DNA of 64,000 bases from Patescibacteria group bacterium. GTDB lineage: Bacteria; Patescibacteriota; JACPGU01. The position numbers and the translations under genes were made by a program. The stretch is from positions 24,530-88,529 of the forward strand of contig JBAYUK010000002.1 in NCBI GenBank assembly GCA_041675145.1, given 5' to 3'. Below the pieces are notes generated by a model that was not told the DNA's origin, made no database searches, and saw only the letters and a list, made by a program, of their open reading frames with translations. Below are positions 41,303 through 64,000 of the stretch, one piece after another; position 1 is the stretch's first letter; every line of letters starts with the position of its first letter.

Positions 41303-41862
41303 AAAAGAATTTTCTAAAAGTTTTTTTTATTTCTGCACTCTTCGCTATTTCCACAGTTACTGTGTTCTCTCTTCCTATGCATGTATATGCGGCTAATGAT
41401 GTGTATGAATACGTGGGACCTACTAAAATCTCTTGTAGTAGTACAGATCCATTTAGTGTTTTTAAGGAGCTTACTGGTGGAGCCACTCCTATTACCGAAG
41501 TGGATAAAGCCCTTAACGGCATTGCCTGTCTTGGGCTTAGTTTGGTTAACTTCTTGTCCGAAATGGCAGTACTGGTCGCTGCGATATATATCACGATATC
41601 TGGGATTAAGTACCAGACATCATCTGGAGACCCAAAGAAACAGCAGGCAGCAATTTCTGCCTTACAAGCAGCCCTTATAGGGTTTGCTCTCTCGTTGTCT
41701 TTTGTTGCTATCATCAACTACGCCCTAAACTTTATTGAGTTCGATACCTTAACAGGACAGTTTAAGAGTGTGAATGTGGAAGCCACAAAACCTGCCGATA
41801 CGCCTGCGCCAGCAGCACCGGGTACGCCTGATACACCAGCACCGCAACCAACCAGAAGCTAG
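41299..41862 (+). CDS. TrbC/VirB2-like pilin paralog 2 (P/A-rich tail)
   Basis: Same architecture as paralog 1, with 'KYQTSSGDPKKQQAAISALQAALIGFAL'. It overlaps paralog 1 by ATGA. Confidence 0.6.
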   Translation: MKKNFLKVFFISALFAISTVTVFSLPMHVYAANDVYEYVGPTKISCSSTDPFSVFKELTGGATPITEVDKALNGIACLGLSLVNFLSEMAVLVAAIYITISGIKYQTSSGDPKKQQAAISALQAALIGFALSLSFVAIINYALNFIEFDTLTGQFKSVNVEATKPADTPAPAAPGTPDTPAPQPTRS

Positions 41863-42060
41863 CTAGTATGTGTACGGTTCAGGTTTATTGCATTTATCCC
41901 CAGGTTTTGCCTTGCTATCCACAGAAATTTGGCTATAATGCACATAAGTGTGGATTTTGTCACCTTAATAAATTCGTTCATTCGTTTGTGTATCGCAATT
42001 TTTTTGAAAAATATAAATAATACAAAGAGGCTCACGTCTCGTAAATCCTCAGGAGGAATC

Positions 42061-42426
42061 ATGCTTAAAAATATAAAAAATCATTTAGCTGTTGTTGGTT
42101 CACTAGCAACTTTGACTGTTGGTAATGTGGCAGCAGCCGCAACAACAGAGATCGAGACTGGCCTTACTAAGACCGGAAACCTCGAGACTATTATTCAAAG
42201 TGTTATGAATACATTTATGGCTATAGTAGGCTTAGCTACAATTGTATACCTTATATACGGCGGATTTATGTACCTAACTTCAGGTGGAAACGCAGAGAAA
42301 GTCACTACAGCCAAGAACACCATTATTTATGCTATTGTTGGTATCATCATTATTGGTGCCGCATACGCAATTCGCGGATTTGTACTTGACCGCCTAAGTA
42401 TCACTATACCTACAGGGGGAATCTAA
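42061..42426 (+). CDS. TrbC/VirB2-like pilin paralog 3
   Basis: An AGGAGG ribosome-binding site. Contains 'MYLTSGGNAEKVTTAKNTIIYAIVGIIIIGAAYA'. I set the start at Met 42061 rather than the ORF-track 41929. Confidence 0.6.
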   Translation: MLKNIKNHLAVVGSLATLTVGNVAAAATTEIETGLTKTGNLETIIQSVMNTFMAIVGLATIVYLIYGGFMYLTSGGNAEKVTTAKNTIIYAIVGIIIIGAAYAIRGFVLDRLSITIPTGGI

Positions 42427-42476: not shown

Positions 42477-42495
42477 ATACTTGTCGTTCTTTAGA

Positions 42496-42753: not shown

Positions 42754-42810
42754 AGGATTTCTAGAAATTATTGCTTATGTATCTGATTTTACCACTAAAA
42801 TCAGGTTTTA

Positions 42811-48662: not shown

Positions 48663-48968
48663 ATGGAAAGAATACAAAAACTAAAAGCAAAAGACATACG
48701 TCTCAAAAACATACCAAAGGCCGCCACAGAAGCGGCCTTTGTGTGTGCTGAAGCAAAAAAGATTTTAAAAAGATTATTCTCCCCTGAAATGGTAAAAGGC
48801 ATCACGGTAGTTTCGTACCAAAGTGGGGTATTAAAAATAAGCGTAAAAGGGAACGCGTATGCCCAAGAGTTAAAAATGAACCAGGAGAGCTTCTTACAAC
48901 ACATAAAAGAAGTAGCTCATATTACCCAACCTCTAGTACTACGGTTTACTCACACCAAAGAGGATTAG
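48663..48968 (+). CDS. DUF721/DciA-like protein
   Basis: 101 aa with 'ITVVSYQSGVLKISVKGNAYAQELKMNQESFLQHI'. It has the position and size of DciA, downstream of dnaN. Confidence 0.5.
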   Translation: MERIQKLKAKDIRLKNIPKAATEAAFVCAEAKKILKRLFSPEMVKGITVVSYQSGVLKISVKGNAYAQELKMNQESFLQHIKEVAHITQPLVLRFTHTKED

Positions 48969-49061: not shown

Positions 49062-50141
49062 GTGCAGAAAAAACACTGGATTATCGGACTCACCCTCAGT
49101 TTCATGCTGAGTTTCTTGTTGGGAGGAGTATCTCAGGCTAAAATCAACTACACCCCCATCGTTAACCCCAAAAACCCAGCCATGTTCGCCAAGATTTTAA
49201 ATAGGTTGGAGTACCCTCGCTCCGGCGAGAGTATTGGCCACCAGGCTGTGGTTTCGACAGACGGAGGAAGGACGTACTTCCAAGTAAGTTGGAAACCAGT
49301 TTATCCATTTAGGCCAAGAGAGGGAGTTAGGCTGTTAGTTAAGGAGGTCATCTATGTGTCTTGGTCTCCTAGCGGCAGATACTTGATGGTGGTTACACAA
49401 AGCCATATAGATGGAGAGCCGTTGCAAGTTGACACAACAGACATCAACTCAGACAAAGAGGGATGCGAAGCACGTTCACTCGGAGTTTATGACTCAACCA
49501 CTAAGCTTATCTATTGGTTTGAAAGAGACTACATAAACGTCGCGAAGAGCAAGATGTATCCAGAGAATTGTGAAGATGTGATTAGTCCTAAATGGGTGGG
49601 GCCAAACAAGCTCCAATACATTCAGGATAAGTCATGGGGCCAAATGTCACCTCTTGGGTATGGTGGTCCTTCTAAAGGGTTGGTTAAGATAGAGATGCCA
49701 AAAGAGCTTCCTTACGATGCAGTGGAAAGTGCTGGACCAATGGCGGCATTTCTATCTCTTCGGTTAACGAAGATTTTGGAGTCGAAAGATAAAAAAGCCT
49801 TAGAGGAGTTTATTTACCTCCTTGATACAGGTCCAGAAGAGTTTAACTACGACGAGCCTCTTGATGTGATTATGAAATACTCAGATCAGTGGGGGAAAGA
49901 AGTAAAAGTAAGAACGATTGAGGTTGGAAGGGATGACGGCGAAGACCCAAAAACACATCATACCTCAACATATTCCACTGCGAGGTTTAACCTGGCTTTT
50001 AGTAAGCCAGTGGAGGGGGATGAATACCCGCAGTTGGAGATAGTTGGGTTTTCCTGGTCTAGCCAATATAGGTGGTGGATTCCTGAAGTCAGTTATGAGG
50101 ATGATTCCTCGATTGAGTTTGAGGAAGAGAGTCCTGAGTAG
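49062..50141 (+). CDS. hypothetical secreted protein
   Basis: Signal peptide, then a 330-aa domain with no recognisable motif. Confidence 0.5.
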   Translation: MQKKHWIIGLTLSFMLSFLLGGVSQAKINYTPIVNPKNPAMFAKILNRLEYPRSGESIGHQAVVSTDGGRTYFQVSWKPVYPFRPREGVRLLVKEVIYVSWSPSGRYLMVVTQSHIDGEPLQVDTTDINSDKEGCEARSLGVYDSTTKLIYWFERDYINVAKSKMYPENCEDVISPKWVGPNKLQYIQDKSWGQMSPLGYGGPSKGLVKIEMPKELPYDAVESAGPMAAFLSLRLTKILESKDKKALEEFIYLLDTGPEEFNYDEPLDVIMKYSDQWGKEVKVRTIEVGRDDGEDPKTHHTSTYSTARFNLAFSKPVEGDEYPQLEIVGFSWSSQYRWWIPEVSYEDDSSIEFEEESPE

Positions 50142-50173: not shown

Positions 50174-50200
50174 GGGGCCGAAAGGCCCCTTTATTTTTTT
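50174..50200. terminator. bidirectional terminator
   Basis: ggggcc-gaaa-ggcccc followed by tttatttttttatt. Confidence 0.7.
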
Positions 50201-50201
50201 A

Positions 50202-52073
50202 TTAAAACCCGTTAGTTGAAAAGTGCCAGCAATCTGAACCTGAATCATCATTTACATACAGACCGTTTTGTTTGGATTGTAGTACGGGGTCGCAAGCCTT
50301 AAAGATATATACTCCATGTTTTTTTAATGTCTCTGCGACAACTTTATCACAGTTGTGGGAGTCGCAGCGTTTTCCTTTAGCTCCGTCTATATCTACTGCT
50401 TCACCTAGTTCATGTATTGAATATCCTGGTACCGCCGTTCTTCCTAAGTCACAAGTCATGGTTCTTTTTGAATAATCATCCTCCTCTTCTTTAGATAATT
50501 TAGGTATGGCCGGGCATCCACTCAAATTCCAGGCATCTCCCTGATCATTTTTAGTCCTAAAAGCAGCACGAATAACAAAACATCCCTTACACTCAGGGTC
50601 ATCCCAAGCTGATTTTAATTTAGCTAGAAAGTTGCTGTTGATGTATAGTTTATCTACTTCCTTTTTTGAACTCACCATGTTTGAGGGTACCGCGACTATG
50701 TTGTACTTTTTGCTGTCTAGGGAAGAGATAGTATATGTGAATTTTTTTGACTTACCATCTACTGTTCTAGTCTTAATATATATCTTCTGAGAACTATTGG
50801 GTGTAAAGTTTGCCCACACCCCGTTTGGGTTATACTTTACCCAGGTTTTGACGCTTGTTGGGTCCGCTAATTGAAAGTGATTACAATCCCCGTTGGGATA
50901 CCTAGCAAAAGCTGCGTGACATAAGTTAATTAGTCCATGTTTGGCCATAATCTCCTCTATCCTATCATTACACCCTCCGCTATAGTAGATTCTTGGGCTA
51001 CTACATCCTGGGAATCCGGCTATGTCTGCTGCGAGACCAGAATAGTGGCGGCTACCTTCGGTGTGACCACCGAGATCAGTTCCAGAAAAAACAGTTATAC
51101 TTAGGCCATCGGTAGCGTTAATTTCAGCAAAGGCTGCAGTTAGTGCGTCACCAAAAGTGGTATCAAAATATAACTCCAACTTTTTATTATTGTAAGTAGG
51201 TAGTTGACTGGTGGTGTAATGGATTCTTTGGCCCGAAGGTTTTAAGTAGGACCCACTAAATGGTTCAGTATTAGCTACGCGCTCACAACTACCTTCACCA
51301 GACATAAGGGCATCATATTTTGCTTTAATCCTGGCCCACCCCTCTTGTGCTTCTTTGAGTTGTTTTTGCTCATTTTTTCCTCCGTGACCATGATACCCGT
51401 CTATGTATGCTTTTTTAAAACTACCATCAAATCCATCTCTGCCTAGTTGGTAGTTAAGATAGGCAGCAGCAGCTAAAATGGATTTCTTAGCATCAAATCT
51501 TCCGTCGGGTTCGCTACTACTAGGCCCGTGTTTTACTCTAAACGCTTCTTTTTCTACTTCCGTTATATTGAGATTATCTACTGCCTCTACTTTGTATACC
51601 TTACCGAAGATGTCTTTAACGTTGTTGTCTGCGTTAGCTGTCTTAAATACAAATTGTCCCAGGCCTATTGCTCCACTAGAGGAGATAGCATCTTCCTTCC
51701 AGTTAGCAGACTCGTGTTCTATAAGCGCTATTAGTTGGGCTTCGTTAACACTAGGGAACTCTTCTACCGCTGCCTTAATGTCTGGCATGTACTTTGCGTA
51801 CACCTCTCCTGTTCCAGTACAACTCACTTGGCCTTCGCCTTCGCTGAGTGTCCCGAGTCTATCACATAAAGTTGAAAACTCACTCACTGTTCCGACAGTT
51901 CCCAGTGTTACGACATTGATGAGTTTTACAATTCCGCACGATTTTTGCGCAAGATTAGCGGCAGCACCAAGAAACACGATAGCCATTGTAAATAAAATAA
52001 GAGCTACCGCGATCGGTATGAGAATTACAATAAATCCTTTTTGGTTGTTTTTTCTAGTATTGAATATGGACAT
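50202..52073 (-). CDS. membrane-anchored multi-domain peptidoglycan hydrolase (SLT lytic transglycosylase + two LAS/M15-like peptidase motifs)
   Basis: N-terminal transmembrane helix. SLT motif 'LIEHES...AIGLGQF'. Two SxHxxGxAxD motifs: 'SRHYSGLAADIAG' and 'SIHELGEAVDIDG'. Its start overlaps the stop of the giant ORF by 20 nt. Confidence 0.7.
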   Translation of the reverse strand: MSIFNTRKNNQKGFIVILIPIAVALILFTMAIVFLGAAANLAQKSCGIVKLINVVTLGTVGTVSEFSTLCDRLGTLSEGEGQVSCTGTGEVYAKYMPDIKAAVEEFPSVNEAQLIALIEHESANWKEDAISSSGAIGLGQFVFKTANADNNVKDIFGKVYKVEAVDNLNITEVEKEAFRVKHGPSSSEPDGRFDAKKSILAAAAYLNYQLGRDGFDGSFKKAYIDGYHGHGGKNEQKQLKEAQEGWARIKAKYDALMSGEGSCERVANTEPFSGSYLKPSGQRIHYTTSQLPTYNNKKLELYFDTTFGDALTAAFAEINATDGLSITVFSGTDLGGHTEGSRHYSGLAADIAGFPGCSSPRIYYSGGCNDRIEEIMAKHGLINLCHAAFARYPNGDCNHFQLADPTSVKTWVKYNPNGVWANFTPNSSQKIYIKTRTVDGKSKKFTYTISSLDSKKYNIVAVPSNMVSSKKEVDKLYINSNFLAKLKSAWDDPECKGCFVIRAAFRTKNDQGDAWNLSGCPAIPKLSKEEEDDYSKRTMTCDLGRTAVPGYSIHELGEAVDIDGAKGKRCDSHNCDKVVAETLKKHGVYIFKACDPVLQSKQNGLYVNDDSGSDCWHFSTNGF

Positions 52074-55000
52074 AGTCTTTCATATAGTCACTTTGATGTA
52101 CTCCTTTTACGCCACGAGAAAACGGTAGGAATCCATGTACGAGAGTAGCTAAGTCTGCTTGTGGATCTTTACTCCCGTTATCTTGAACCCCGTTAAAGAA
52201 GTCCACATCCTCTTGTCTAAAGGTTCCTATCACAGGAGGTATAAGGGATGTATTTCTTGTTCTTTCTCCAACTCGTAACATATCGTTTATGAGTAGTCTC
52301 GTATTGGCTTTTGCCCACTGCTCATACATGGCGTCATTTTCCTTACAGAACATCTTCCAGTTGATTGCATCGATATTAGACATGAGCGGGTTTTCTTCAT
52401 TGATGAGTGGAACATCCTGGAAGCAGGTCATTTGGTTCTCGATCTTAGAATAGCCAAAGACGATGGTATATACCGCAAATGCAATACTGATAGGGTTTGG
52501 CGCTATAACGGCTGAGATGACCGCTGAAAGAGACCCAGGGGGTAGTCCTAGTTGCGCATCAGCCTTAGCAAGTTGCTTAGAAAAGACCAGTAAAGCAACT
52601 GAGGCTATATCTACCTTGGTTACTTGCTTTCCTTGAGCAATCTTTTGCCCTAGATCGTAGACGGTTTGCGTAGAACCTTGTGGGAGTCCGAGCTGTTTAT
52701 CTACTACCGCACCGATTTGAGCACGAGCAAAGTCACCAGCAAAGTTAGTAAACTCCTTGCTCTTAAGCTTACTTGTGTTTCCTGTGGCAGCGTAGTATAT
52801 ATACTGTGCAGTTCCCGAAGGCAGGGTGATGTTTGTGTTTTTACTTAAGTTTTTTTGCAGGATGCCATTAAGCTTGGTATCAAAGTAGCCAAACATTGCA
52901 TCGCGTCCTGCGTTATCAAGCTTATTATTTTGGAACCTGTCTGGATCAGAACTAGTAGCAAGTTTTTCTATTACACCTACAGCGACTGAGCCTAGAACGC
53001 TCTTTTCTTTTACTTCTTGGATGAACGCTATATCTTGTACTGCGTAGGTTAATGCATACGACAATAACATGTTATTGCGTTCTCGATCAGTACCGCTAAA
53101 CATAATCTTACTGAAGTTTGGTGGCGGAGGAGGGAGGTTGTTTTTGATGGCTGCGGTAGCAAGCTGTGCATCCAGATATTTAAACTGTAAGTTGCGACGA
53201 GAGTTTGGAATGAGTTTATTTTCGTTTTCTTGAATAGATGAATCTAGACTATCTAACAAGTCTTTGTTATCTACATTATCTTTTTCGTTAAGGCGACTGC
53301 GAACCCCTTTCTCAAGACACTGATCTTGAGTTGCTTCATCTAAACATGTTGCCGTACCACCAAAGAGCTTTGCGGCTTGTGCTTGCTCGCGAACAAATTG
53401 GTCGGTAGTTTCTTGACGTATTTTAAGGCGAGAGGTAGTGCTTCCATAGGTGGCATCCATAATCTCTTGGTAGCCAATTTGGAAACCTGGAGGAAGAATT
53501 TGGTACTCTACTTTTTGTTGCCCGTTTTCTTGTTTTTTAATTTGCGTTGCGTTGACTTGGTTTACGCCAAAAGCAATACCAATAATAGAGAGGATACGAG
53601 TATCTCCTTTAAGTAACGCTCCTAGGTCTGCTTCTGGAACACTTACTCCTTGAAGTCTAGTGATTGTTTTTCCATTTTCTTCTACCTTTATTTCTGTAGC
53701 ATTACGAATTGTATCTCCAAGTATTTTCTTTGTTACAAAATCAAAACAACTCGATCTTTTTTGAACACGACCAGTCTCACCAAAAGTAAGATCATACTCT
53801 TTGTATTTCCTTAGATCTTCATTGTATTGTTCAATTCTCTTTTGGTGCTCAGAAACAGCCACGGTACTTAATAGCTGTTCTGAAGTAAGCTCTGGAACCG
53901 GTGCTGGTTTTTTAGCAACTGGAATTGCAGCAACAGTACCTGCACTACATGAGCTAGATGCTTGGAGTGCATTTGCGTGTATGGGGTAGTCGTACCCTTC
54001 GTCGGTTGCATCGCTCTTATTTAAGCCCTGTGCAAACGGTGCAGAAAAGCCTGGAATCGAGTACTGCATAAGAAGGGCAAGATCATTATAGAGACTTGCT
54101 TGTGGGTTGTTGGCGCTTAACTTTGGCCCCAGGATTGCCTCAGATGCTTCACGAATTCCCTGACCCATAAGGATAGATTTTGCAAGGTCTCGGTTCATAA
54201 GGATGTTTTTCATCGTACCTGGATTCCAGCCTATTTGGTCGTCGATATCGTAGTGGCCGATATTTTTAATTGCGTTAAGTAATCCTACCTGAGTGCTTGG
54301 ATCATTTAATCTGTTCTTGTCTTGGAGAAGAGAAGTAAAGTTCACATAGCCGTTGATGATTTTTCCGATCTTACCCTGGCCTTCTTCATCCGAAACAAAG
54401 TACGCGGCCATCTGTTCAGGAGTTAGTTCGTCAAACTGATGCGTACGCACAAGTTCTATGTACTGGGCTATGGTTATTTGGCCTGTTAAAAGTTTTTTAG
54501 TTGGATGTGATTGATCAGCGATACTACCTATCTTAAGCCTTGCGTCTATAGTATCTGCTCGAGCGTTATTTGAAGATCCAAAGATTGGTTCGTTCCAGTA
54601 GCTCTGATCGTTAAATGTTCCGCTCTCGACAAAGACAGCCTGAGAAATAAACGAGCGAATATCGTTGTCGTTCATGCTAGCGTCGGGAGTGTTTATTTTA
54701 AAAGATTTTGTAAACTGACGAACACCGTTACTTTGCATAACACTACTGATGCTTTGGTTAGGGTTAAATGATCCAGGCTTAAGACCAAGTACTTCCTCTA
54801 TTTGTTTTTGAGCAAAGTTTTTTGTGAATTCTCCTTTAATTGGGATTTTAATACCAAGCTGAGATTGGAAGCCGAGTAGTATTCCAAGTTCTGCAGGAGG
54901 TATCAGAGCAATGAGTGCTTTTTGTTGGAGAGTATCGCTATCTCGTAGGCCGTCAACGACGTCATTACAATCAAGGTTATGTTTAGCGAGAATGTTTTGT

Positions 55001-58000
55001 ATTGTTTTAACTTCTGTTTTGTTGTTAACACGAATAGTGTCTTCACTTAGTTTAATGCCTGAAATTTGTTTACAAACATTATTCTCTAGGTGATTCTTTA
55101 GGTTGCTAGCCGATGCAAGTTTCTTGTAGTCGTCGATGGTAATACTATTCTTCAATAATTTTTCAGTGGTGTGAGTAGGTAAATGTAGTATTGTATCTAC
55201 TCCATTCTCTCCAGACATAGCAGTAGTGAGTTCGGTAAACTCTGAAAAATTAGCATTAGATAAGCCGTACAGACTGAGTGGATCTGAGTAGTTGTTGGCC
55301 GCTGTTCTGTTTGGCTGCATATGGAATAGCGCAATAACTATTTGTTCTGCAACGCGCATATCTGCCCTAGCAAACTTTGTGCCATAGTCGTAGCTTGCAC
55401 TAAATCCAAAGAGTGGCAAGAAACGATCCTCAGCATCAAGTCTTGTTTGAATTCCAGCATATGGGTTTTCGCTATTACTTTGCGGAAGTCCAAGGTTTCT
55501 TCCGAGGGTATTTGCAAGCTCATCAAGTGAGTTACCGCTAAACCAAAAGGCAGGAAGAGTACTAGATGGGTCTAAAATCCTTTCCGCTAGCTGTCTTCCA
55601 TTATCTTGTACTTGGTCTGGGGTATCAGAAGGTTTTCCAGGCATAAGGAGCCCGACTGTTGCGTTGTATTCATTTGGAGTTATTGTTTGCGCAAAGAGTT
55701 TTGCAGTAAGTCCTGTTAAGCCAGATCTAACTTTCGGCGATTCACCAATGGCTCTAATTAACTTCTCATCAACCGCGTTAGTTATGGCACTATCTTTTAC
55801 AGGACCAGTAATAGTGAAACGACTTCTTAAGATATCTGTTTTGGTGGTTTGGATAGCAGTAGGAGTTGTCTGACCTAGGAGACGCAAAATGTTTTTAGCA
55901 ACACCGGTAAGATTTTCTCCATCAAACCAGCCAGCAGGAAGTGAGTCTTGTCCTGATAGATCACGCACCATAGTGTCTATTTGTGCTTTATAGGGGTTTG
56001 TGGGGCTGTAGAGGGCTTGTTCTATGCTTATCTGCCCCATATGTGAGCGAGCATTGTCTGAGACGGCTATACTGCCTGCTATACCTACGATATGTGCAAG
56101 CGTATCCTTGCCATTTGCTGCTAGTATATTTTCTAGACAACTTTCGTTTACCCCAGCTTCGTTGGTTATCTGACACTCTAAACTTGGGTTGTCTACCATT
56201 GCCTTGATGGTTCCTAGTGGCATTACTAGACCCTTATCTAGTTTTTCAGCACCAATCTTTATTGCAATAGGGAGTAGGTTTCCATTTAAGGTATCGATGA
56301 TATCTATTCCAGATAATTTGTAGCCTGAAACAGTCACGCCTAAGCTACCGGATATTTCGTTAGCAGATTTATGCTTTACTACTAGCGACCCTATCCGCTT
56401 TGAAAATTCTTGCGGTGAAATATCTTGCGAGAAAAGTTGCGCAGATAGTCCGTTGATGTCGTTTAGTTGTTCTACTGATATACCAAAACTTTTTATTATT
56501 TTATTATCCATTGCAGCGGCAGGTGCATAATCTCGAGGGGAGAGTGGGAGTGTACTATACCGTTCATCTAGAAGGTCTAGCTTTGTGGTGTATTCTGTGC
56601 CAAAGGCGTAGTTCTTTTCGTCGTACCCGAATGCATTTAACATTCTGTTTTCCGATTCTATACCAGCCGCAAACGCAGCAGAAAAATCTCCGTTCGGTAA
56701 ATTAAAACGCGTGATATTCTTACTACGAATATCATCTAGTGTATTTCCGTCAAACCAGTTTTTACCAAGTTTACCGTTTGGATCAAAAACTTTTTCTATA
56801 TACTTTTGTCCTATACTAATTAACTGCTTTTCAGTCGCTGTTCCTTTGATACTTGTTTTGTTTGGATCGTTATTGTTTGAGTTATTTGGACCAAGATTCA
56901 GCGCTTCCATAGTGAGCTCTAAGACGCCTGCAGGAATATCAAATTTTTCTTCAAGTTTCTTCATTCCCATAGCGAGTGCAACTTTCTCGATGGTCTCTTC
57001 ATTAGACTCATTGTTTGAAAGAAGTAAGCTTTGTATGAGGGGATCAGTACATATCTTTTTATCTTTTATGAGTTTATTTTTTTGCGCAATAAGTCCTGCG
57101 TTTGCAATGTCATTAACTTTAAGTTTTAGATTGTCCTCGCGTTTACTAATTGCTTTCATTTGTTCAGCTATCTTTTTCTTGTCTACAGCAACTGGGTTTC
57201 CGTTGCTGTCGTAACTAGCCGATTCATAAGCAACTTCTTTTTCAGCTTCAATATTTGCAAGTTGGTCTTGCAGTCTGTTTAGTTCTTGTGCGCGACGGTC
57301 ATCTGAGAGTTTTGCTATTTGTCCGGTGTCTGCTTTGATCTGTCCTATGTTAGTAAATACGTTAGTGCCATTATTGTTTATAAAAATGTCCGAGAAAGAG
57401 TCCTCGGGTACGAGGAATAAATCGGTCATACTTTTTTCAGTAATAAAAGTCCACTGGTCGATGGTGGCGATTTCAATAGTGAGCTGTTGCTTACTCACTC
57501 GGATAGATTCTTCTACTCTTTTTATATTTTGGTTAAGTAATTGTACTTGTCCGCTGTTTCCGCTTTTAGCACTCATGGTTAATTCATCAAGACTCTTCTT
57601 GTATAGTTCTAGTTCGGCTTCAAGTGCTTTAATCGTGTCTTTCAGTCTGGTAATTTCATTTTCATCTTTATTTAGGATGCGTTCACGAGTACGAATCTTG
57701 AATGTATCTAGTGCTTGGTAGTTTCCGTCGACATCAACCAAGCTAAATGCAAAACCGAGGTCATCAATTGGTGCTTCGTGAAACTCTAACCATGAACGCA
57801 CTACAAGACGGTCTTCGTCGTTGCTTGCCATTTTTTTAGTGAGTTCATCAAGGCCGATATTCTTCCAGGCACCTGTATAGTCTTGAATAATAAAAAGTTG
57901 ATCAACACTACCGTCTGGAATATCTAATATTTCATCTTGCTGGTTTGCATCATCGTTAGTGTTGGTGTAGGTACCGTTAGCGTTTAAAACAGCGCTCTTA

Positions 58001-60003
58001 TATGTCGTGAAGTTTCCGACTTTTGCTTTTAAGAATTGTTTTCCAATTGTTTGCTTGTAGCTAAACGGACTCATACGCCCGATCTTGAAAAGGTAGGTAT
58101 AGCGACTTGACCCAAAGTCTTTTGAGTCAAATGAAGTACCCAGCAATCCATCTACTTTATCTGCCTGGGTGCCACTTGCTAGAGCTCCTTCTCCTCCTTC
58201 TTCGTCACCAAATATTTTTACAAACTTTTCTGTTCCTATTTTTTCTTTAATTACTGAGAGGTTATCTGTACTCATACTTCCTGCAGGAAGGTTTAAGGTT
58301 TGTTCAATAACAATTCCTCCGATATATGCAGAAAGGTCATACCGTTCTGGTAGATAATCAAAGGCCATCGTTCTAATACCAAGAGAGTCTTCAAGTTTTC
58401 TTTTTCCAACACTTTTTATTATCTCTTCGGAGTTGATGGTGTCCTTAAAGTTTCCGGTGGCAGTGTTGCCTGAAAGAGAACGCGGAACAAGACCGAGTCG
58501 TTCCTCGATAATTGCTCGTCCTATGTTGGCTCTCATCTCTTCAGGGGTTGCCCCACGCATACCATCTACTGGCAAACCGAGACACTGTGCAACCAGACCC
58601 TTACCAAGGTTGGTAGCTATTTTCTCTAAGCTCGAGTTGTCTGCTGCTGGGTCGATATCTACCCCTATCTCTTGAGAGAGGACAGCAAGTCCCACGTTTT
58701 TTGAAATATCTCCAATGGTTCCGGTGCCTGTTTTTACTTTTGAAAGGTCGTAGCCTGTGTTTTGTCCAACCAAGGCAAGCAGTCCAGATATTCCGGCCTT
58801 ATCGAAGATTTCAGCAAACGTTTTACCATCTAGGTTAGTTCCATTGCCAGTAGATAAGCCCTTGCCTTTTTCTTTGGACTGGTTCGTAACTAGGATGTCT
58901 TTTGGAGAGAGTGGCTTCTTCTTTTTCTTGGCGATACTCTTTTTGAATAACTGGCGATCCACATATCCAATTACGGATATATCCATGGCCTGTCCGGTGC
59001 TATGTGGGCTGATGAGTTCTTTTGTAGCAGGATCACTACTTTCTTGTTCTCCCCATTCACGAGAGTTTGCAGTTTGCTCGCTATCATATCCATCCATGAT
59101 GCGATCTACCTTTATTTTGCGATGTCCTGCTCCACCGTACTTAGTAGGAGTTACGAGGTAGTTAAGAGCTTTTAATATTCTAATATCTACTTCACCGTCA
59201 CGAATATGTTGCTTGTCTCGTTCTGAGATAACAAGTCTTGGCTGATTAATAGTGTCGAGAAGTTGTTGGAGTAGGAGAAGTTGGTCTCGTAGTTCAACTA
59301 AGAGTTGTTTTTGACGATTAGTACCATCGGTAACAGCAACTGCAAGTGGTCCTGCATCTTGCGCAGGGGAGGTAATGGCGCCGGTATCGTCGGTTTCTAC
59401 TGGTATAGCGTCTTGAACAAGCGAAACAGACTGGTCGACCGCTTTTTTATCTGCTTCAAAGTTTCCATTACCGACAGTGTTTAGGTTATCTATGATGGTT
59501 GTGGTATGTTCACGAATTTTGGAGTTAGTTTCATTTGGGTCAACGGCTGCGATCCGAGCCAAAAAGCTGTTAGTTTGCTTAGGGGTAGTAGGTGCTGGAG
59601 TAGGGGTGGTATCTGCCCCTGTTGTAGCCTTTAGTTCAGATGCTTTTGTAATACCGAGCTCTCTCTCGTCAGAGAGGACTACCCGACCAGCCTGCTTGTC
59701 TCCAGTCATAGCAAGATCAGCGTTCTGGTAGCGAGGACCCTCAATCGGTACATTTTTACTCGGTTGTTCTTGTGTGGTACCACCTGCTCCACCGTTAATT
59801 GCATTGAAAATGGCAAGAAAGATTACTGCAACTACTATTCCACCTATAACAAAAGGACCCCATTCAGGAAAGGTCTGGATAAGGAACTTAATTGCCTGTT
59901 TCTTTAACTTGTCCTTCAGCTGGTTCTTTGCCTGTTCTCTAGCGGCACTCATTGCCTGAGAAGCAGCAGAAGGCTGGGCTTGTTCTTCTTCAAACTCTGC
60001 CAT
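52054..60003 (-). CDS. giant (2649 aa) membrane-anchored surface protein with N-proximal LAS/M15-like motif
   Basis: A single uninterrupted ORF of 7.95 kb. N-terminal transmembrane anchor. 'ISPHSTGQAMDISVIG' motif near residue 330. Long coiled-coil and repeat-poor remainder. Confidence 0.75.
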   Translation of the reverse strand: MAEFEEEQAQPSAASQAMSAAREQAKNQLKDKLKKQAIKFLIQTFPEWGPFVIGGIVVAVIFLAIFNAINGGAGGTTQEQPSKNVPIEGPRYQNADLAMTGDKQAGRVVLSDERELGITKASELKATTGADTTPTPAPTTPKQTNSFLARIAAVDPNETNSKIREHTTTIIDNLNTVGNGNFEADKKAVDQSVSLVQDAIPVETDDTGAITSPAQDAGPLAVAVTDGTNRQKQLLVELRDQLLLLQQLLDTINQPRLVISERDKQHIRDGEVDIRILKALNYLVTPTKYGGAGHRKIKVDRIMDGYDSEQTANSREWGEQESSDPATKELISPHSTGQAMDISVIGYVDRQLFKKSIAKKKKKPLSPKDILVTNQSKEKGKGLSTGNGTNLDGKTFAEIFDKAGISGLLALVGQNTGYDLSKVKTGTGTIGDISKNVGLAVLSQEIGVDIDPAADNSSLEKIATNLGKGLVAQCLGLPVDGMRGATPEEMRANIGRAIIEERLGLVPRSLSGNTATGNFKDTINSEEIIKSVGKRKLEDSLGIRTMAFDYLPERYDLSAYIGGIVIEQTLNLPAGSMSTDNLSVIKEKIGTEKFVKIFGDEEGGEGALASGTQADKVDGLLGTSFDSKDFGSSRYTYLFKIGRMSPFSYKQTIGKQFLKAKVGNFTTYKSAVLNANGTYTNTNDDANQQDEILDIPDGSVDQLFIIQDYTGAWKNIGLDELTKKMASNDEDRLVVRSWLEFHEAPIDDLGFAFSLVDVDGNYQALDTFKIRTRERILNKDENEITRLKDTIKALEAELELYKKSLDELTMSAKSGNSGQVQLLNQNIKRVEESIRVSKQQLTIEIATIDQWTFITEKSMTDLFLVPEDSFSDIFINNNGTNVFTNIGQIKADTGQIAKLSDDRRAQELNRLQDQLANIEAEKEVAYESASYDSNGNPVAVDKKKIAEQMKAISKREDNLKLKVNDIANAGLIAQKNKLIKDKKICTDPLIQSLLLSNNESNEETIEKVALAMGMKKLEEKFDIPAGVLELTMEALNLGPNNSNNNDPNKTSIKGTATEKQLISIGQKYIEKVFDPNGKLGKNWFDGNTLDDIRSKNITRFNLPNGDFSAAFAAGIESENRMLNAFGYDEKNYAFGTEYTTKLDLLDERYSTLPLSPRDYAPAAAMDNKIIKSFGISVEQLNDINGLSAQLFSQDISPQEFSKRIGSLVVKHKSANEISGSLGVTVSGYKLSGIDIIDTLNGNLLPIAIKIGAEKLDKGLVMPLGTIKAMVDNPSLECQITNEAGVNESCLENILAANGKDTLAHIVGIAGSIAVSDNARSHMGQISIEQALYSPTNPYKAQIDTMVRDLSGQDSLPAGWFDGENLTGVAKNILRLLGQTTPTAIQTTKTDILRSRFTITGPVKDSAITNAVDEKLIRAIGESPKVRSGLTGLTAKLFAQTITPNEYNATVGLLMPGKPSDTPDQVQDNGRQLAERILDPSSTLPAFWFSGNSLDELANTLGRNLGLPQSNSENPYAGIQTRLDAEDRFLPLFGFSASYDYGTKFARADMRVAEQIVIALFHMQPNRTAANNYSDPLSLYGLSNANFSEFTELTTAMSGENGVDTILHLPTHTTEKLLKNSITIDDYKKLASASNLKNHLENNVCKQISGIKLSEDTIRVNNKTEVKTIQNILAKHNLDCNDVVDGLRDSDTLQQKALIALIPPAELGILLGFQSQLGIKIPIKGEFTKNFAQKQIEEVLGLKPGSFNPNQSISSVMQSNGVRQFTKSFKINTPDASMNDNDIRSFISQAVFVESGTFNDQSYWNEPIFGSSNNARADTIDARLKIGSIADQSHPTKKLLTGQITIAQYIELVRTHQFDELTPEQMAAYFVSDEEGQGKIGKIINGYVNFTSLLQDKNRLNDPSTQVGLLNAIKNIGHYDIDDQIGWNPGTMKNILMNRDLAKSILMGQGIREASEAILGPKLSANNPQASLYNDLALLMQYSIPGFSAPFAQGLNKSDATDEGYDYPIHANALQASSSCSAGTVAAIPVAKKPAPVPELTSEQLLSTVAVSEHQKRIEQYNEDLRKYKEYDLTFGETGRVQKRSSCFDFVTKKILGDTIRNATEIKVEENGKTITRLQGVSVPEADLGALLKGDTRILSIIGIAFGVNQVNATQIKKQENGQQKVEYQILPPGFQIGYQEIMDATYGSTTSRLKIRQETTDQFVREQAQAAKLFGGTATCLDEATQDQCLEKGVRSRLNEKDNVDNKDLLDSLDSSIQENENKLIPNSRRNLQFKYLDAQLATAAIKNNLPPPPPNFSKIMFSGTDRERNNMLLSYALTYAVQDIAFIQEVKEKSVLGSVAVGVIEKLATSSDPDRFQNNKLDNAGRDAMFGYFDTKLNGILQKNLSKNTNITLPSGTAQYIYYAATGNTSKLKSKEFTNFAGDFARAQIGAVVDKQLGLPQGSTQTVYDLGQKIAQGKQVTKVDIASVALLVFSKQLAKADAQLGLPPGSLSAVISAVIAPNPISIAFAVYTIVFGYSKIENQMTCFQDVPLINEENPLMSNIDAINWKMFCKENDAMYEQWAKANTRLLINDMLRVGERTRNTSLIPPVIGTFRQEDVDFFNGVQDNGSKDPQADLATLVHGFLPFSRGVKGVHQSDYMKDYVHIQY

Positions 60004-60171: not shown

Positions 60172-60205
60172 CATAATAATATCCCGCACTGGCGGGATAT
60201 TATTA
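60172..60205. terminator. 15-bp-stem hairpin ataataatatcccgc-actg-gcgggatattattat
   Basis: Perfect inverted repeat downstream of the TolB-like gene. The ATCCCGC...GCGGGAT core also occurs at 4236. Confidence 0.6.
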
Positions 60206-60229
60206 TAATTTGATTATAACCTTTATAGG

Positions 60230-61768
60230 TTATTTGAGTAAGTTACTCAAGTCTACCTTAGAGATATCACTAGCTCCCACGAGGTAAGCGCTATTACTTC
60301 CAGAAAGAAGCGTTTGTACTTGGCTCGTTGTGTTAGTTTCTTTTAGTTCGATTGGTTGTTTTTGAGCAACGCCGTCTGAACTAATCTTGATCATTACTAG
60401 GCTATTGTTATCAAGTGTGATTACTGTAGTGTTATTTATCCATGCTGTGGTGAAGGTTTTACCAGAGACCTTTAGATCTTGGTTGCGCATTTCGTTGCTT
60501 ACCCCACTAGCAACACTCGCTAGCCATAGGTTACTATCACTTTCGTAAATAAGGTGATTGCCATCACTTGCCCATTTTATATCTGATACATCACCAGTAG
60601 CGCTGATCTTAGATAAGCTTCGAGTTTCAAAGCTGTAAATATACAAGTCATTTTTCTCACTAGATAGGTTCAGGTTCTTGTCTGTATTCTTCTTAGGGTA
60701 GATTGCAATCTTGCTGCCATCTGGTGACCAGTTAGTAGCAGGGTTCTTCATGCTCTCAAGCTTTAAGATACGCTCGTAGTTTGAGCCGTCATTGTTTGAG
60801 GTAGCGATAACTTTTTCACCTGCTCCGTCAAAGAAGTAAGAAATCTTGTCCCCTTCAGGAGAGAATGAAACATTCCTGATGCTTGGGTGAAGGTTCTTCA
60901 GGCTAATGTTTACGAGGTCACGGCGATCTAAAGTAATTACCCAGGTAAGAGAAGTGTCATCTCCAGCGTCTTTTATATATGACAAAAGACCATCTGGAGT
61001 TTTACTGCTGTTAGTTGTAGTAACTGCTAGCTGTGAGTAGGTTCCAGACCAGGTAACATTACTAATAGAAGCTATGGGCTTATTAGTCACAGCAGTTTCA
61101 GTCTGAGTATCTATGCGGTATTCCATGAGGTTGTAGCCTGCATCACTCTTTGTGAAGTACAGTAACGCATTCGTTTCAGGGTTAAACACTGGGAAAAGTA
61201 CTGCTTTTGCCAGTACTGGAGTTACTCCTGGCTTCTCCTGGAGTGAGAAAGAAACTGCAGCTCCTTTCGTTTGCTTAGTAACTGTAAACTGTCTTGAATT
61301 TGCTATATACCCATCCTTGGTTGCTGTTAGGGTGTATGTTCCTTCTTTAAGAGCGATAGTAGTAGGGCTTGTTATGTCCTTAAAGTCTTGTCCGTTAGCA
61401 GAGAGGCTAAACGGCGTCTGGTTGGCAGATACGCTAAACTGTACTGGTTGCCCACCCATATACCAGAGAGAGCCACCGATAAGAAGAGCAGCGAGGACTA
61501 TTCCTCCTCCGGCTATACCAACGATCTTTTTGTTGCCCATGAGCCAGTCACGGATATTCATCTTATTTACTGGCATATCAAAGGTAGGTTCAGGAGTGGT
61601 AGTGTATGGCTCTACTACAGGAGTACTGACTGGGGTAGGTGGAGTATATGAACTGTTCAGTCCCGCATCCTGCATTTGACTTACAGGGGACTGGTATGTA
61701 GGTGTCTGGTTTACTTGGGGCGGGTTTTGCTCTTCTGGTACTTGCAAACCCTCGAGATTGTTTTCCAT
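60230..61768 (-). CDS. TolB-like beta-propeller (PD40 repeats) membrane-anchored protein
   Basis: A proline-rich N-terminus, then a transmembrane helix. PD40-like repeats 'FSPEGDKISYF', 'WSPDGSKIAIY' and 'WASDGNHLIYE'. The start may be Met 61768 or Met 61810. Confidence 0.6.
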   Translation of the reverse strand: MENNLEGLQVPEEQNPPQVNQTPTYQSPVSQMQDAGLNSSYTPPTPVSTPVVEPYTTTPEPTFDMPVNKMNIRDWLMGNKKIVGIAGGGIVLAALLIGGSLWYMGGQPVQFSVSANQTPFSLSANGQDFKDITSPTTIALKEGTYTLTATKDGYIANSRQFTVTKQTKGAAVSFSLQEKPGVTPVLAKAVLFPVFNPETNALLYFTKSDAGYNLMEYRIDTQTETAVTNKPIASISNVTWSGTYSQLAVTTTNSSKTPDGLLSYIKDAGDDTSLTWVITLDRRDLVNISLKNLHPSIRNVSFSPEGDKISYFFDGAGEKVIATSNNDGSNYERILKLESMKNPATNWSPDGSKIAIYPKKNTDKNLNLSSEKNDLYIYSFETRSLSKISATGDVSDIKWASDGNHLIYESDSNLWLASVASGVSNEMRNQDLKVSGKTFTTAWINNTTVITLDNNSLVMIKISSDGVAQKQPIELKETNTTSQVQTLLSGSNSAYLVGASDISKVDLSNLLK

Positions 61769-61961
61769 GTGATTCCTCCTTGGTATTTGTGTGATTAAAA
61801 TTACCCACACTATATCAGTAAAAAAATATTATGACAAATTAGTGCTACTTTATGTCTTTTAGCGCTTGCAGGCCTTTTTCTGTATATATTCGTATTTTGG
61901 CTTAAATAACCTGTTATTCATATATTCCACCACGTATTTTATGGTATAATATAGAAATATT

Positions 61962-62117: not shown

Positions 62118-62948
62118 ATGAACAAAAAAGCCACACTACAACCTCTACAGATGACAACCCGATTTGAGGATTTGGCTGCCAAAATTGGTTCACCTACGAT
62201 CAAGCGAAACCTCAAAACAGGTCGTTTGCAGGACTTAACTGACCTAAAACCTGAAGATATCCTCTCGTTTCTACACCAGGGTAAGCTAAAGCAGGAAGAC
62301 GCTATGTTCTGGCTTGGAGTACTCGCAGTCTCTGCTGAAGAAAAGGCTAAGAAACATGAGGAGCTTGCTACTACCGATGAACTAACACAGGTATATAACC
62401 GCCGTGCTTTTATAGATACACTGTCTAAAGAACTCTCTCGTCTTCGTTCAAAGCATATACAGATGCAGAAAATGCTCTCTGAACCAATGTCGCTTAACCT
62501 TATGCTACTCGATATCGACTTCTTTAAGAAAGTAAACGATACCTATGGTCACTTATCTGGAGATCGTGTGCTTAAGGGTCTTGCTGATGTACTAAAGAAA
62601 CAAGTTCGTGCTACAGATACGGTTTTCCGTTACGGTGGTGAGGAATTTGCTATCCTACTTCCCGACACCGATGAGAAACTTGCTCTTGAAGCAGCGCATC
62701 GTATTAACAAGGCAGTAGAAAAAGCATCATTCGTCATTAATCATTCGAAGAAGAAACGCCTAAACATTACCGTATCTGTTGGTCTAGCCACACTTCATGG
62801 TCACCAGCTTGCCAACACTCAGGTAACAGATATGATGATCCCTCGCCTTATTGCTCGTTCCGATGCTGCTCTCTACCATTCAAAGGAGCACGGTCGTAAC
62901 AAAGTAACGGTTTGGACAACAAAAATGAAGGATACAAAAAAGAAATAA
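62118..62948 (+). CDS. GGDEF-domain diguanylate cyclase
   Basis: 'RYGGEEFAILLPD' (GGEEF), 'LLDIDFFKKVNDTYGH' and an N-terminal ~90-aa unknown region. Confidence 0.85.
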   Translation: MNKKATLQPLQMTTRFEDLAAKIGSPTIKRNLKTGRLQDLTDLKPEDILSFLHQGKLKQEDAMFWLGVLAVSAEEKAKKHEELATTDELTQVYNRRAFIDTLSKELSRLRSKHIQMQKMLSEPMSLNLMLLDIDFFKKVNDTYGHLSGDRVLKGLADVLKKQVRATDTVFRYGGEEFAILLPDTDEKLALEAAHRINKAVEKASFVINHSKKKRLNITVSVGLATLHGHQLANTQVTDMMIPRLIARSDAALYHSKEHGRNKVTVWTTKMKDTKKK

Positions 62949-63072: not shown

Positions 63073-64000
63073 GTGAGATTTAATTTCAAAAGATTTGTTT
63101 TTTCTATCTTGTCTGTCGCCGTTGTGCTCCAGGCTTTTTCTGGTGTGTTGCTAGCAAGACCACAAAGAGTGGAGGCGGCAACCCCAACTAAGCCAGCGGT
63201 TGAGTTGACAGCAACTGAGAATAGTAGGTTTTTTATTTACGACAACGCTAAGTCTGGCCTTAAGTGTGAAGGAAAAGAAGACCCAAACAATAAGGGGGTC
63301 TACACAAATACCTGTACATGGAAGCCGTATCAGACTGATGCAAGTAATATTGTTTTGTATACGCTTGTTCCTCCTGAGTTCAAAACTGATGCCTGGGAAG
63401 GGCCTGACGATCTCAACGACAATGATGATCGAAAAACTTTCTTAGATCTCTGTAATACTATAGACGAAGGACACAAACTTTCAGCTGAGTGTTATCAAGG
63501 AACGGCCACAAAGGCTACATGGCCATACGATAGACCATCACTTAATACTTTCTTCGGAGCTGACGACACAGATAACGTTCCTCTTTCAGAACTTAAGCTT
63601 ACTGTTAGTATTAATCCACCAAAAGTTGACCCGTTTTATATATATGCAGCAACTGATGTTGCTGCAACCGGAAGGGCATATAAGACTAATGATTGGCAGG
63701 TATTTAGAGATATTCAGACGCTTTATAGATCAGGTAAAGACAAATTAACAGACAAAGAAAAAGAAACAGCAGCAAGTTACGAGACTATTGATTGTGATGC
63801 AGAATCTGGCGGTGTTCATAGTGGAAAAGTAGCAAAAGACACCTGTATCCAAGTAAAGAAAGAGGCTGAGACTATGGGCAAAGTAGTACTAGCCCGTTAT
63901 CAAGTATACAAAGATTGTGTGGAGGTTCATGATACTGCAGGATGTCAGGCAGCACAAAGAGGTCTTTCTGAGGCAGAGGCTACCTATGGTGCTTCAGTAA
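63073..64000 (+). CDS. secreted Cys-rich hypothetical protein (5' partial in window; runs off the 3' end)
   Basis: GTG start, signal peptide 'FSILSVAVVLQAFSGVLLA', then an open frame of more than 309 codons to the window end with scattered Cys pairs. Confidence 0.45.
   Translation, partial: MRFNFKRFVFSILSVAVVLQAFSGVLLARPQRVEAATPTKPAVELTATENSRFFIYDNAKSGLKCEGKEDPNNKGVYTNTCTWKPYQTDASNIVLYTLVPPEFKTDAWEGPDDLNDNDDRKTFLDLCNTIDEGHKLSAECYQGTATKATWPYDRPSLNTFFGADDTDNVPLSELKLTVSINPPKVDPFYIYAATDVAATGRAYKTNDWQVFRDIQTLYRSGKDKLTDKEKETAASYETIDCDAESGGVHSGKVAKDTCIQVKKEAETMGKVVLARYQVYKDCVEVHDTAGCQAAQRGLSEAEATYGASV

Follow-up and report, generated by a model that had tools for sequence, protein, structure and literature searches.

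A giant Patescibacteria protein with an apparently split LAS/M15-type domain, and its overlapping wall hydrolase gene, in a type IV secretion system neighbourhood

Introduction

The type IV secretion systems (T4SSs) of Patescibacteria are MPF-FATA-like, often lie near dnaA in Microgenomatia and Paceibacteria, carry VirB2 arrays and usually have no relaxase (PMC12102498). The same paper detected no adhesins at these loci, described Gram-positive-type T4SSs as lacking a known wall-spanning channel, and mentioned in passing 'peptidase and lysozyme homologues ... essential'; it made no mention of a giant protein, of M15 or of GGDEF. In the only genetically tractable Patescibacterium the T4SS is essential for epibiotic growth and its function is 'completely unknown' (PMC11665869). 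Here we describe a locus of this kind in a stretch of 64,000 nucleotides (the window) from a Patescibacteria group bacterium, in which the gene for a protein of 2649 residues (aa), hereafter the giant, overlaps the gene for a 623-aa peptidoglycan hydrolase. The evidence is computational throughout; what was computed here comprises the genes with their motifs, the family to which the giant belongs, a LAS fold for the giant's joined halves, and linkage to T4SS genes. We consider it reasonably probable that the pair is a cell wall-processing module of a monoderm-type (MPF-FATA-like) T4SS.

The first genes of the corresponding locus of 'Ca. Southlakia epibionticum' ML1 are dnaA, dnaN, recF and SEML1_0004 (Wang et al. 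2023; PMC10633639, supplementary tables). They are followed by SEML1_0005, a PEGA protein; SEML1_0006, a 643-aa protein with two lysozyme-like domains and a cysteine proteinase; and SEML1_0007, a 1113-aa 'hypothetical' protein with an ECOD Hedgehog/DD-peptidase domain at 951-1105, whose best structural match is a 'Peptidase M15B domain-containing protein' (PMC10633639). Next come SEML1_0008 (VirB4), SEML1_0009, SEML1_0010 (PrgI), SEML1_0011, SEML1_0012 (NTF2-like) and SEML1_0013 (VirB6), then the pilins SEML1_0014 to 0019 and SEML1_0020 (Hsp20); SEML1_0004 to SEML1_0010 were all essential for epibiotic growth in transposon sequencing (Tn-seq; PMC10633639). The giant, the hydrolase and the neighbouring propeller protein of the window would be the counterparts of SEML1_0007, 0006 and 0005, respectively, by position and domain type only. 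A module of this kind, in which a large LAS-domain protein and a wall hydrolase of several domains are encoded beside virB4, has thus been recorded before, as has the Patescibacteria T4SS itself; the giant family, its size range and the apparently split architecture of its peptidase domain were not described in the literature searched.

Wall enzymes of Gram-positive T4SSs are the other point of reference. PrgK and TraG have an intracellular N-terminal part, and are therefore taken to be membrane-anchored, whereas Orf14 has no intracellular domain; in PrgK, a regulatory and not a catalytic role has been reported for LytM and CHAP (PMC12857230).

Results

The giant and hydrolase genes overlap

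The two genes and the features of their products, all on the minus strand, are as follows (window positions).

52054..60003, minus strand: giant gene, 2649 aa, open reading frame (ORF) unbroken (7.95 kb)
59794..59862, minus strand: N-terminal transmembrane anchor of the giant, residues ~48-70, preceded by a Lys-rich segment; Kyte-Doolittle maximum 2.77
58864..59238, minus strand: N-terminal half of the putative LAS/M15-like domain, residues ~256-380, with D273, R275, S332, H334, G337, D341 and Q375
58981..59010, minus strand: motif SPHSTGQAMD, residues 332-341, which would supply the putative zinc site with its first His and its Asp
52342..58863, minus strand: insert, residues 381-2554 (~2,170 residues)
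52453..52536, minus strand: conserved hydrophobic segment, residues 2490-2517; Kyte-Doolittle 1.78
52057..52341, minus strand: C-terminal half of the putative LAS/M15-like domain, residues ~2555-2649, ending D2643-Y-V-H2646-I-Q-Y
50202..52073, minus strand: hydrolase gene, 623 aa, membrane-anchored peptidoglycan hydrolase
51963-52037, minus strand: hydrolase transmembrane segment, residues ~13-37
51624-51782, minus strand: hydrolase SLT domain, with a PF01464 match over residues 107-150 (34.6 bits versus a 21.3-bit cut-off)
50859-51221, minus strand: hydrolase M15-like domain 1, SRHYSGLAAD (341-350), then DCNHF (396-400)
50205-50636, minus strand: hydrolase M15-like domain 2, SIHELGEAVD (552-561), then DCWHF (614-618)

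The ORFs share 20 nt (52054-52073), and the hydrolase ATG (52073-52071) lies within the giant's final codons, D-Y-V-H-I-Q-Y-stop. The sole Shine-Dalgarno-like sequence, AAGGAG, is ~28 nt upstream of that ATG; with this arrangement translational coupling of the two genes is plausible. The codon of H2646, the putative third zinc ligand, falls inside the 20-nt overlap (window 52054-52077, minus strand). An earlier note, made from the letters of this DNA, had reported the uninterrupted ORF, the overlap, the N-terminal anchor and, in the partner, an SLT motif and two SxHxxGxAxD motifs, and all of these were found. It had also described a TolB-like propeller and a GGDEF cyclase as flanking the locus; both genes are real, but they lie together on one side, upstream of the giant. 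The motif S.H..G.A.D occurs three times in the 3272 residues of the two proteins, against a chance expectation of ~0.001.

In the hydrolase, EHES (119-122, an E-S motif with the catalytic Glu) and GLGQF (137-141) fall inside the SLT match, a part also matched by the PHROG families 'lytic tail protein' and 'endolysin'. The M15-like domains matched Pfam VanY with 17.7-19.9 bits, under the cut-off of 25. When a four-sequence profile of these domains was compared with the PDB, LAS proteins made up 26 of the 29 matches, among them YodJ/LdcB (E 0.009; LdcB 0.08), the Sonic hedgehog N-domain (0.03) and VanY, within a range of 0.009-0.2. We regard the 623-aa protein as a VirB1-like wall hydrolase that combines two M15-like domains with an SLT domain.

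The giant belongs to a large Patescibacteria family

An NCBI 'hypothetical protein' from a metagenome-assembled genome of a Patescibacteria group bacterium has the same sequence as the giant. Scanned whole or in 300-aa pieces, the giant matched no Pfam, NCBIfam or PHROG family. Word-indexed protein searches were insensitive here: the giant and a 3-sequence profile retrieved two relatives only, and the hydrolase retrieved only itself. We then searched 1.84 billion cluster representatives exhaustively with phmmer, using residues 256-720 and 2420-2649 joined as query; 180 of them matched at E<=1e-3, 106 of these at E<=1e-10, and most were 1.4-3.2 thousand residues (kaa) long. GTDB species representatives that encode close relatives include a 'Candidatus Microgenomates bacterium', and a search of contigs gave four loci. 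We place the giant in a large, uncharacterised Patescibacteria protein family.

Nearly all full-length members have S-A-H-x-x-G-Q-A-V-D within their first ~150-450 residues and a His 4-8 residues before the C-terminus, where the forms ...D-[YF]-V-H-I-G-Y, ...T-H-I-G-F, ...D-H-I-H-V-R-W and ...D-W-V-H-V-S-F-G-G-L-F occur. Both strict motifs (H..G.A.D and the C-terminal His) are present in 94 of the 132 long members, separated by 1122-2695 residues (median 2096). An N-terminal hydrophobic segment is found in 112 of these 132, and in the giant the positive-inside rule would place the N-terminus inside. A full-length collinear homologue (P0002, 2616 aa) is encoded in a syntenic locus from an independent run, and both termini are common to more than 100 further family representatives. 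An assembly chimera, which the earlier note had named as a way in which the giant ORF could prove false, is unlikely for these two reasons, and no sign of one was seen.

The two ends of the giant are predicted to form one LAS/M15-like domain

LAS/M15 peptidases have the ligand pattern H-x6-D ... [DE]-x-x-H-hydrophobic. The same pattern is present in the partner's two domains, and therefore we tested the two termini of the giant as one domain. In our alignments (A4, A7), D273, R275, S332, H334, G337, D341 and Q375 were invariant or nearly so. Among the 132 long members, the aligned N-terminal site has His in 126 and Asp in 123; the C-terminal His is present in 113, and three positions ahead of it 52 members have Asp and 8 have Glu. 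The N-terminal site (His and Asp) and the C-terminal His were both intact in 110 members and both lost in 9; in 10 the N-terminal site was intact and the C-terminal His lost (about half of these being truncated sequences), and in 3 the reverse was seen.

We modelled two constructs with AlphaFold2 (AF2) from shallow alignments of 36-42 rows. Construct 1, residues 251-400 joined to 2519-2649 and aligned with 35 full-length relatives, was predicted as a single body with a mean pLDDT (predicted local distance difference test) of 81.7 and a pTM (predicted template modelling score) of 0.78; both halves were above 90, and the junction alone was disordered. The N-terminal half had a pLDDT above 90 in both models, and the C-terminal segment D2643-Y-V-H2646 was modelled as a strand. 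The two constructs matched LAS structures alike, with 107-131 residues aligned. The matches are listed below by name and PDB entry, each followed by its two figures as tabulated, in unlabelled columns.

MepA (1tzp): 7.9; 130
Zn DD-peptidase (1lbu): 6.4; 98
Sonic hedgehog N (6rmg): 5.9; 94
LysB4 (6akv): 5.8; 110 of 151
VldE-C (9flh): 5.8; 85
Ply500 (2vo9): 5.7; 108 of 149
T5 endolysin (8p3a): 5.6; 109 of 137
RB49 M15C (23ri): 5.5; 96
VanX (1r44): 4.7; 109
VanXYc (4mur): 4.5; 97

Two more hedgehog N-domain entries (7e2i, 2ibg) brought the LAS matches to twelve, and the joined halves are thus predicted to adopt a Hedgehog/DD-peptidase fold. Family models pointed the same way below threshold. VanY reached E 0.002 in relatives, no curated family model being above its cut-off; in a Pfam scan of 24 members with joined halves, the matches, all sub-threshold, were to DUF5715 (five), VanY (four), M15_4 (three), Extensin-like_C (three), HH_signal, M15_2 and M15_3. 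We take these models, DUF5715, VanY, M15_2/3/4, HH_signal and Extensin-like_C, to share one Pfam clan. From the models and the paired ligands we hold, with good though not full confidence, that the giant family carries one LAS-type domain assembled from both termini. The motif near residue 330 that the earlier note reported is indeed present, at 332-341; it appears to belong to only half of a domain, the other half being the extreme C-terminus, and this split is what that note appears to have missed.

The insert between the halves

AF2 model 2 covers the insert parts 381-720 and 1920-2554, with a mean pLDDT of ~71. These parts were predicted to be mainly alpha-helical with a few beta-hairpins, and no structural analogue was found for them; a coiled-coil-like stretch lies at ~770-850. 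A motif conserved across the giant family, 'hG..hE..LGLPxGS(h)xG', occurs in at least 8 copies in the insert (residues 461-478, 487-513, 525-542, 565-578, 1008-1026, 1731-1747, 2432-2444 and 2484-2493) and matched no Pfam repeat. We considered it as a peptidoglycan-binding (PG_binding_1-like) element and dropped this idea, which had no Pfam support. A hydrophobic segment like that at 2490-2517 is found 60-250 residues before the C-terminus in 107 of the 132 long members. In the model the segment forms two short helices (model residues 1042-1051 and 1055-1067) of moderate pLDDT only, a form that would be compatible with a hairpin keeping the C-terminus outside.

The pair lies among T4SS genes in several genomes

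The contig that contains the window (L001) was annotated with a Pfam gene table that extends beyond the window end. Past the GGDEF gene the order is a 1141-aa VirB6-like protein, PrgI (VirB3-like), TraC-like/TrsD and a VirB4-type ATPase, the VirB4 gene starting ~16 kb from the hydrolase gene. The 1141-aa protein has a signal or transmembrane segment, a large ectodomain, ~5 transmembrane segments (residues 392-583) and a long tail; it is 28% identical to L002_1020 and 25% identical to the first gene product of the L008 T4SS operon, and its VirB6 label rests on topology and on homology to that operon gene only. The neighbourhood holds VirB4, VirB3/PrgI, TrsD, a polytopic VirB6-like protein and VirB2-like pilins, the set that marks a Patescibacteria MPF-FATA-like T4SS.

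Related loci were ordered as follows.

L002 (giant 35% identical): VirB4, TraC-like, PrgI, VirB6-like, GGDEF, propeller, giant, overlapping SLT hydrolase, 107-aa ORF in the DciA position, dnaN, dnaA
L003 and L004 (giants of 2709 aa and 2360 aa): GGDEF, PEGA/propeller, SLT hydrolase, giant, followed by three ORFs that correspond to DciA, dnaN and dnaA by size and position only
L008 and L009 (family member of 1428 aa): same-strand T4SS operon with overlapping genes, namely VirB6-like, 309 aa, PrgI, TraC-like and VirB4 fusion, 465 aa, family member, SLT
L010 (2435 aa): PrgI, TraC-like, VirB4, five more genes including the propeller, then the giant, all on one strand
L011 (2631 aa): Peptidase_M23 gene upstream, overlapping the start of the giant

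By blastp, orthologues of the propeller protein lie next to the giant in L002, L003, L004 and L010, and those of the SLT protein were found in L002, L003, L004 and L008; the VirB6-like protein has orthologues as well. The SLT orthologue of L008 (36% identity) is three genes past VirB4 in the operon. The domain order of the L002 hydrolase is M15-SLT-M15, and the accessory domain in the hydrolase slot varies, being NlpC/P60 in L003, absent in L004 and L008, and M23 in L011, which is typical modular shuffling. That members of the giant family consistently accompany T4SS core genes and interchangeable wall hydrolases supports a T4SS role over mere proximity to oriC.

The TraC-like/TrsD and VirB4 proteins are fused into 898 aa in L008 (5909-8605, plus strand) and are separate in the window's contig, L002 and L010. 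In L010 (5551-8893, plus strand), genes for a T2SSE-type ATPase and a Peptidase_C39_2 protein lie between virB4/propeller and the giant; a Peptidase_C39_2 protein is encoded near P0003 too. In L001 and in every close relative examined (L002, L003 and L004), the GGDEF gene stands between the T4SS core and the propeller/giant module, and near P0003 it has the same position; this hints at control of the module by cyclic di-GMP in organisms with very few signalling genes.

Neighbouring genes in the window

The flanks of the pair carry these features.

60173..60206, no strand: hairpin with a 15-bp stem, between the propeller and giant genes
60230..61810, minus strand: propeller gene, membrane-anchored protein with PEGA-like and TolB/DPPIV-like beta-propeller domains (Pfam, NCBIfam), a conserved neighbour
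62118..62948, plus strand: GGDEF diguanylate cyclase (Pfam, 139 bits)
63073..64000, plus strand: start of the VirB6-like gene, 1141-aa polytopic protein, running past the window end
50174..50189, no strand: GC-rich hairpin in the gap where the 359-aa and hydrolase genes converge, terminator-like GGGGCCGAAAGGCCCC then a T-run
49062..50141, plus strand: gene for a secreted or anchored 359-aa protein, between the DciA-like and hydrolase genes
48663..48968, plus strand: DciA-like gene directly after dnaN (Pfam, 23.1 bits, just under the 24-bit cut-off)
40880..42426, plus strand: three tandem VirB2-like T4SS pilin genes (PF18895 T4SS_pilin, E 1e-7, 2.5e-6 and 7e-13; TrbC weak)
35192..38896, minus strand: second large wall enzyme, 1234 aa, with Amidase_2, three Ig-like (N_BRCA1_IG) repeats and SpoIID

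The transmembrane segment of the propeller protein is at residues 80-104. On the other flank, downstream, are the 359-aa gene, the DciA-like gene, dnaN and dnaA, and the pilin array lies on the opposite side of oriC from the pair, so the T4SS genes straddle oriC. The 359-aa protein matched no family in Pfam, NCBIfam or PHROGs, and its gene is missing from the corresponding position in L002. The DciA position is occupied by a Pfam-annotated DciA at the P0003 locus and by a ~100-aa ORF in L002, L003 and L004. A phage or mobile-element origin of the giant was considered and rejected, there being no PHROG match and a ring of housekeeping genes around the locus. The pilin array adjoins genes for Hsp20 and a solute-binding protein (39062-39508 and 39515-40855). 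A 101-aa ORF at 42481-42786 (plus strand) is probably spurious, as the contig gene table calls rpsT (Ribosomal_S20p) on the opposite strand, and the only RNA feature in the window is one tRNA-Lys.

Discussion

A proposed wall-processing module for a T4SS

We propose that the pair serves the T4SS as a wall-processing module. The 623-aa enzyme would be membrane-anchored and face outward, its SLT domain cutting glycan strands and its two M15-like domains cutting peptide stems. The giant would be anchored by its one N-terminal helix and would contribute a third LAS/M15-type zinc-peptidase domain, built from residues ~256-380 (H334, D341) and the last ~95 residues (D2643, H2646), with the ~2,170-residue insert as a huge excursion clamped at both ends on the peptidase domain. 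Expressed from one bicistronic unit, the two proteins would open peptidoglycan locally and so let the T4SS and its VirB2-like pilus cross the wall; they might act on the host's wall as well. The insert could be a scaffold, a spacer or a contact element, and may have a structural or host-contact role besides. Catalysis, substrate, membrane topology, translational coupling and the role of the insert are the parts of this proposal that we infer. The recurrence of the giant and hydrolase pair in L002, L003, L004 and L008/L009 agrees with it, and the membrane-anchored SLT and M15-like enzyme in a T4SS gene neighbourhood bears out the earlier note's suggestion of VirB1-like wall remodelling. That note's other ideas fared less well. 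A giant adhesin finds little in the protein: no adhesin domain was found, no RTX nonapeptide, YD/Rhs, Ig-like, cadherin or other adhesin repeats were detected by Pfam and NCBIfam, and the modelled insert (381-720, 1920-2554) is mostly alpha-helical and lacks a structural analogue. Nor is an undescribed system supported: the pair sits in an already described monoderm-type Patescibacteria T4SS neighbourhood (PMC12102498, PMC10633639), and the Southlakia locus already lists SEML1_0007 beside a lysozyme-like protein. A known RTX- or Rhs-like family, which that note had named as an outcome that would refute it, did not appear in the giant in Pfam, NCBIfam or PHROG, searched whole or in 300-aa pieces.

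Several observations weigh against this proposal. The largest subfamily (...PQTxxxTHIGF) has no acidic residue three positions before the last His. Pfam Peptidase_M15_4 matched the giant at E 0.01-0.03 with 15-17 bits, the cut-off being 25; PDB sequence and profile searches with the joined halves (3 and 24 sequences) gave nothing significant (E > 0.2), the sole LAS match in the profile searches being Indian hedgehog at E 1.1; and in hhalign comparisons of the giant with the partner's M15 domains the motif alone aligned. Both AF2 models are of artificial deletion constructs with a putative zinc-site geometry, and the Fisher exact test that gave p = 6e-7 for joint ligand loss ignores phylogeny. 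If segment 2490-2517 made a single membrane span, the C-terminal half would be cytoplasmic and unable to join the N-terminal half. In the window, the pair is its own unit, split from the T4SS core by the propeller gene and the oppositely oriented GGDEF gene, and the conserved proximity of the pair to oriC could have other causes.

Some of these points also suit a reading that we regard as possible and clearly second to the wall-processing module, in which the giant's part in the T4SS is mainly structural, its LAS domain a non-catalytic clasp or peptidoglycan-binding module and its long, probably helical excursion a wall-spanning stalk, a conduit or a fibre that contacts the host. For Gram-positive-type T4SSs no channel through the wall is known, and Patescibacteria T4SS loci yielded no adhesins (PMC12102498); the modelled insert parts are mostly helical with conserved blocks, a split domain would bring the ends of the insert together, the missing D/E of the largest subfamily would be accounted for, and PrgK offers a precedent for wall-enzyme domains that regulate and do not cut (PMC12857230). 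However, 110 of the 132 long members retain all three putative metal ligands, and where these are lost they go together, a pattern which argues for selection on a metal site. Moreover, no pore, adhesin or pilus-like fold was detected, and an insert that varies from 1.1 to 2.7 kaa is a poor fit to a fixed-length conduit.

The split domain might instead be a modelling artefact, with residues 256-380 a degenerate LAS remnant and the C-terminus an unrelated module packed against it by AF2. We think this improbable. The constructs are artificial, the alignments shallow (36-42 rows), and sequence methods were negative or weak, as was Foldseek, which with model 1 found nothing in the PDB below E = 3. 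Yet two different constructs gave the same LAS matches, over 107-131 aligned residues, a length that the N-terminal half with its ordered residues could not supply by itself; the pTM was 0.78 despite a disordered linker of 50 residues; and ligand loss was correlated. The C-terminal pattern [DE]-x-x-H-h-x-[YF], which resembles the last strand of M15 enzymes, also matches the partner's D-C-[NW]-H-F.

The pair could also be a general autolysin or wall-turnover module, active in growth or division, with no tie to the T4SS and placed near oriC for dosage or by ancestry; we rate this slightly lower still. In its favour, the hairpins at 60173-60206 and 50174-50189 bracket giant and hydrolase as a separate two-gene unit, the giant adjoins DciA-dnaN-dnaA in several genomes, and the Amidase_2 and SpoIID enzyme (35192-38896) shows that the window encodes another large wall enzyme. 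Against this, the family member of L008/L009 lies inside a T4SS operon with overlapping genes, and the genes called in L008 include neither dnaA nor dnaN; the L010 giant follows PrgI-TraC-like-VirB4 on one strand; and the Southlakia counterpart is between virB4 and the lysozyme-like gene. Least likely is that the giant is an effector against the host, secreted or translocated, which the T4SS would deliver as a wall-degrading toxin: delivery of T4SS effectors to the host has been speculated for Saccharibacteria (PMC11665869) and the giant has a wall-peptidase-type domain and a gene beside T4SS genes, but its N-terminal signal-anchor is typical of Sec-inserted membrane proteins, its gene is single-copy, keeps its synteny and is conserved, not polymorphic, in distant lineages, and no immunity-like gene was identified.

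Significance

The locus supplies candidate components for the passage of a monoderm-type T4SS through the wall and on to the host: in one large branch of the phylum, the T4SS neighbourhood holds a very large, conserved and so far undescribed family tied to wall-cutting enzymes. If the split domain is real, up to 2,700 residues separate its second metal ligand from its third, an extreme domain insertion; domain databases would miss the giant family because the peptidase domain is split. With N-terminal S-A-H-x-x-G-Q-A-V-D and C-terminal ...H-I-G-[FY] as a signature, hundreds of giant genes now called 'hypothetical' could be labelled. More speculatively, and with low confidence, the family might be the missing envelope-crossing or host-contact part of the T4SS, with a split-domain clasp at the membrane, a helical excursion of 1-2.7 kaa through wall and S-layer to the host, and coupled SLT/M15 cutting. 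If so, the giant would be, within a secretion system, the functional counterpart of the tape-measure or ejection protein of a phage, and its variation in length would track differences in envelope or host.

Comparison with known systems

Phage tail, tape-measure and ejection proteins with lytic domains (the SLT of T7 gp16, the peptidase of T5 Pb2) are comparable by analogy only. Like the giant they are very long and largely helical, combine a wall-cleaving domain with hydrophobic segments and act in envelope crossing; the giant differs in having no PHROG match, a chromosomal, oriC-proximal gene with no phage genes nearby, and an N-terminal anchor. With the LAS/MD-clan enzymes (MepA, Streptomyces Zn DD-peptidase, VanX/VanY/LdcB, the phage M15C L-alanoyl-D-glutamate peptidases and the Hedgehog N-domain) the giant shares H-x6-D and, as modelled, a putative C-terminal-strand His after D-x-x; known domains are contiguous and span 110-240 residues, whereas the giant family has 1.1-2.7 kaa between the second and the putative third ligand.

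Of the characterised systems, those with the VirB1-like enzymes PrgK (pCF10), TraG (pIP501) and Orf14 (Tn916) come nearest. These enzymes resemble the window hydrolase in combining extracellular glycan-cleaving and peptidase domains, and Gram-positive VirB1-like enzymes are likewise encoded with VirB3, VirB4 and VirB6 homologues (PMC12102498). They pair SLT or muramidase with CHAP/NlpC-P60 or LytM and have no giant partner, whereas the peptidase domains of the window hydrolase are M15/LAS-type and the enzyme appears coupled to a second, giant LAS-bearing protein. In the Southlakia locus, likewise, a large Hedgehog/DD-peptidase protein overlaps and adjoins a multi-domain lysozyme-like hydrolase with a PEGA protein beside it, and the module lies beside virB4, PrgI, VirB6, a pilin array and Hsp20, near dnaA-dnaN. 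The locus differs in that SEML1_0006 has two lysozyme-like domains and a cysteine proteinase where the window hydrolase has SLT and two M15-like domains, and in that the LAS domain of SEML1_0007 is contiguous and C-terminal in a protein of 1113 aa, whereas that of the 2649-aa giant is apparently split around ~2,170 inserted residues.

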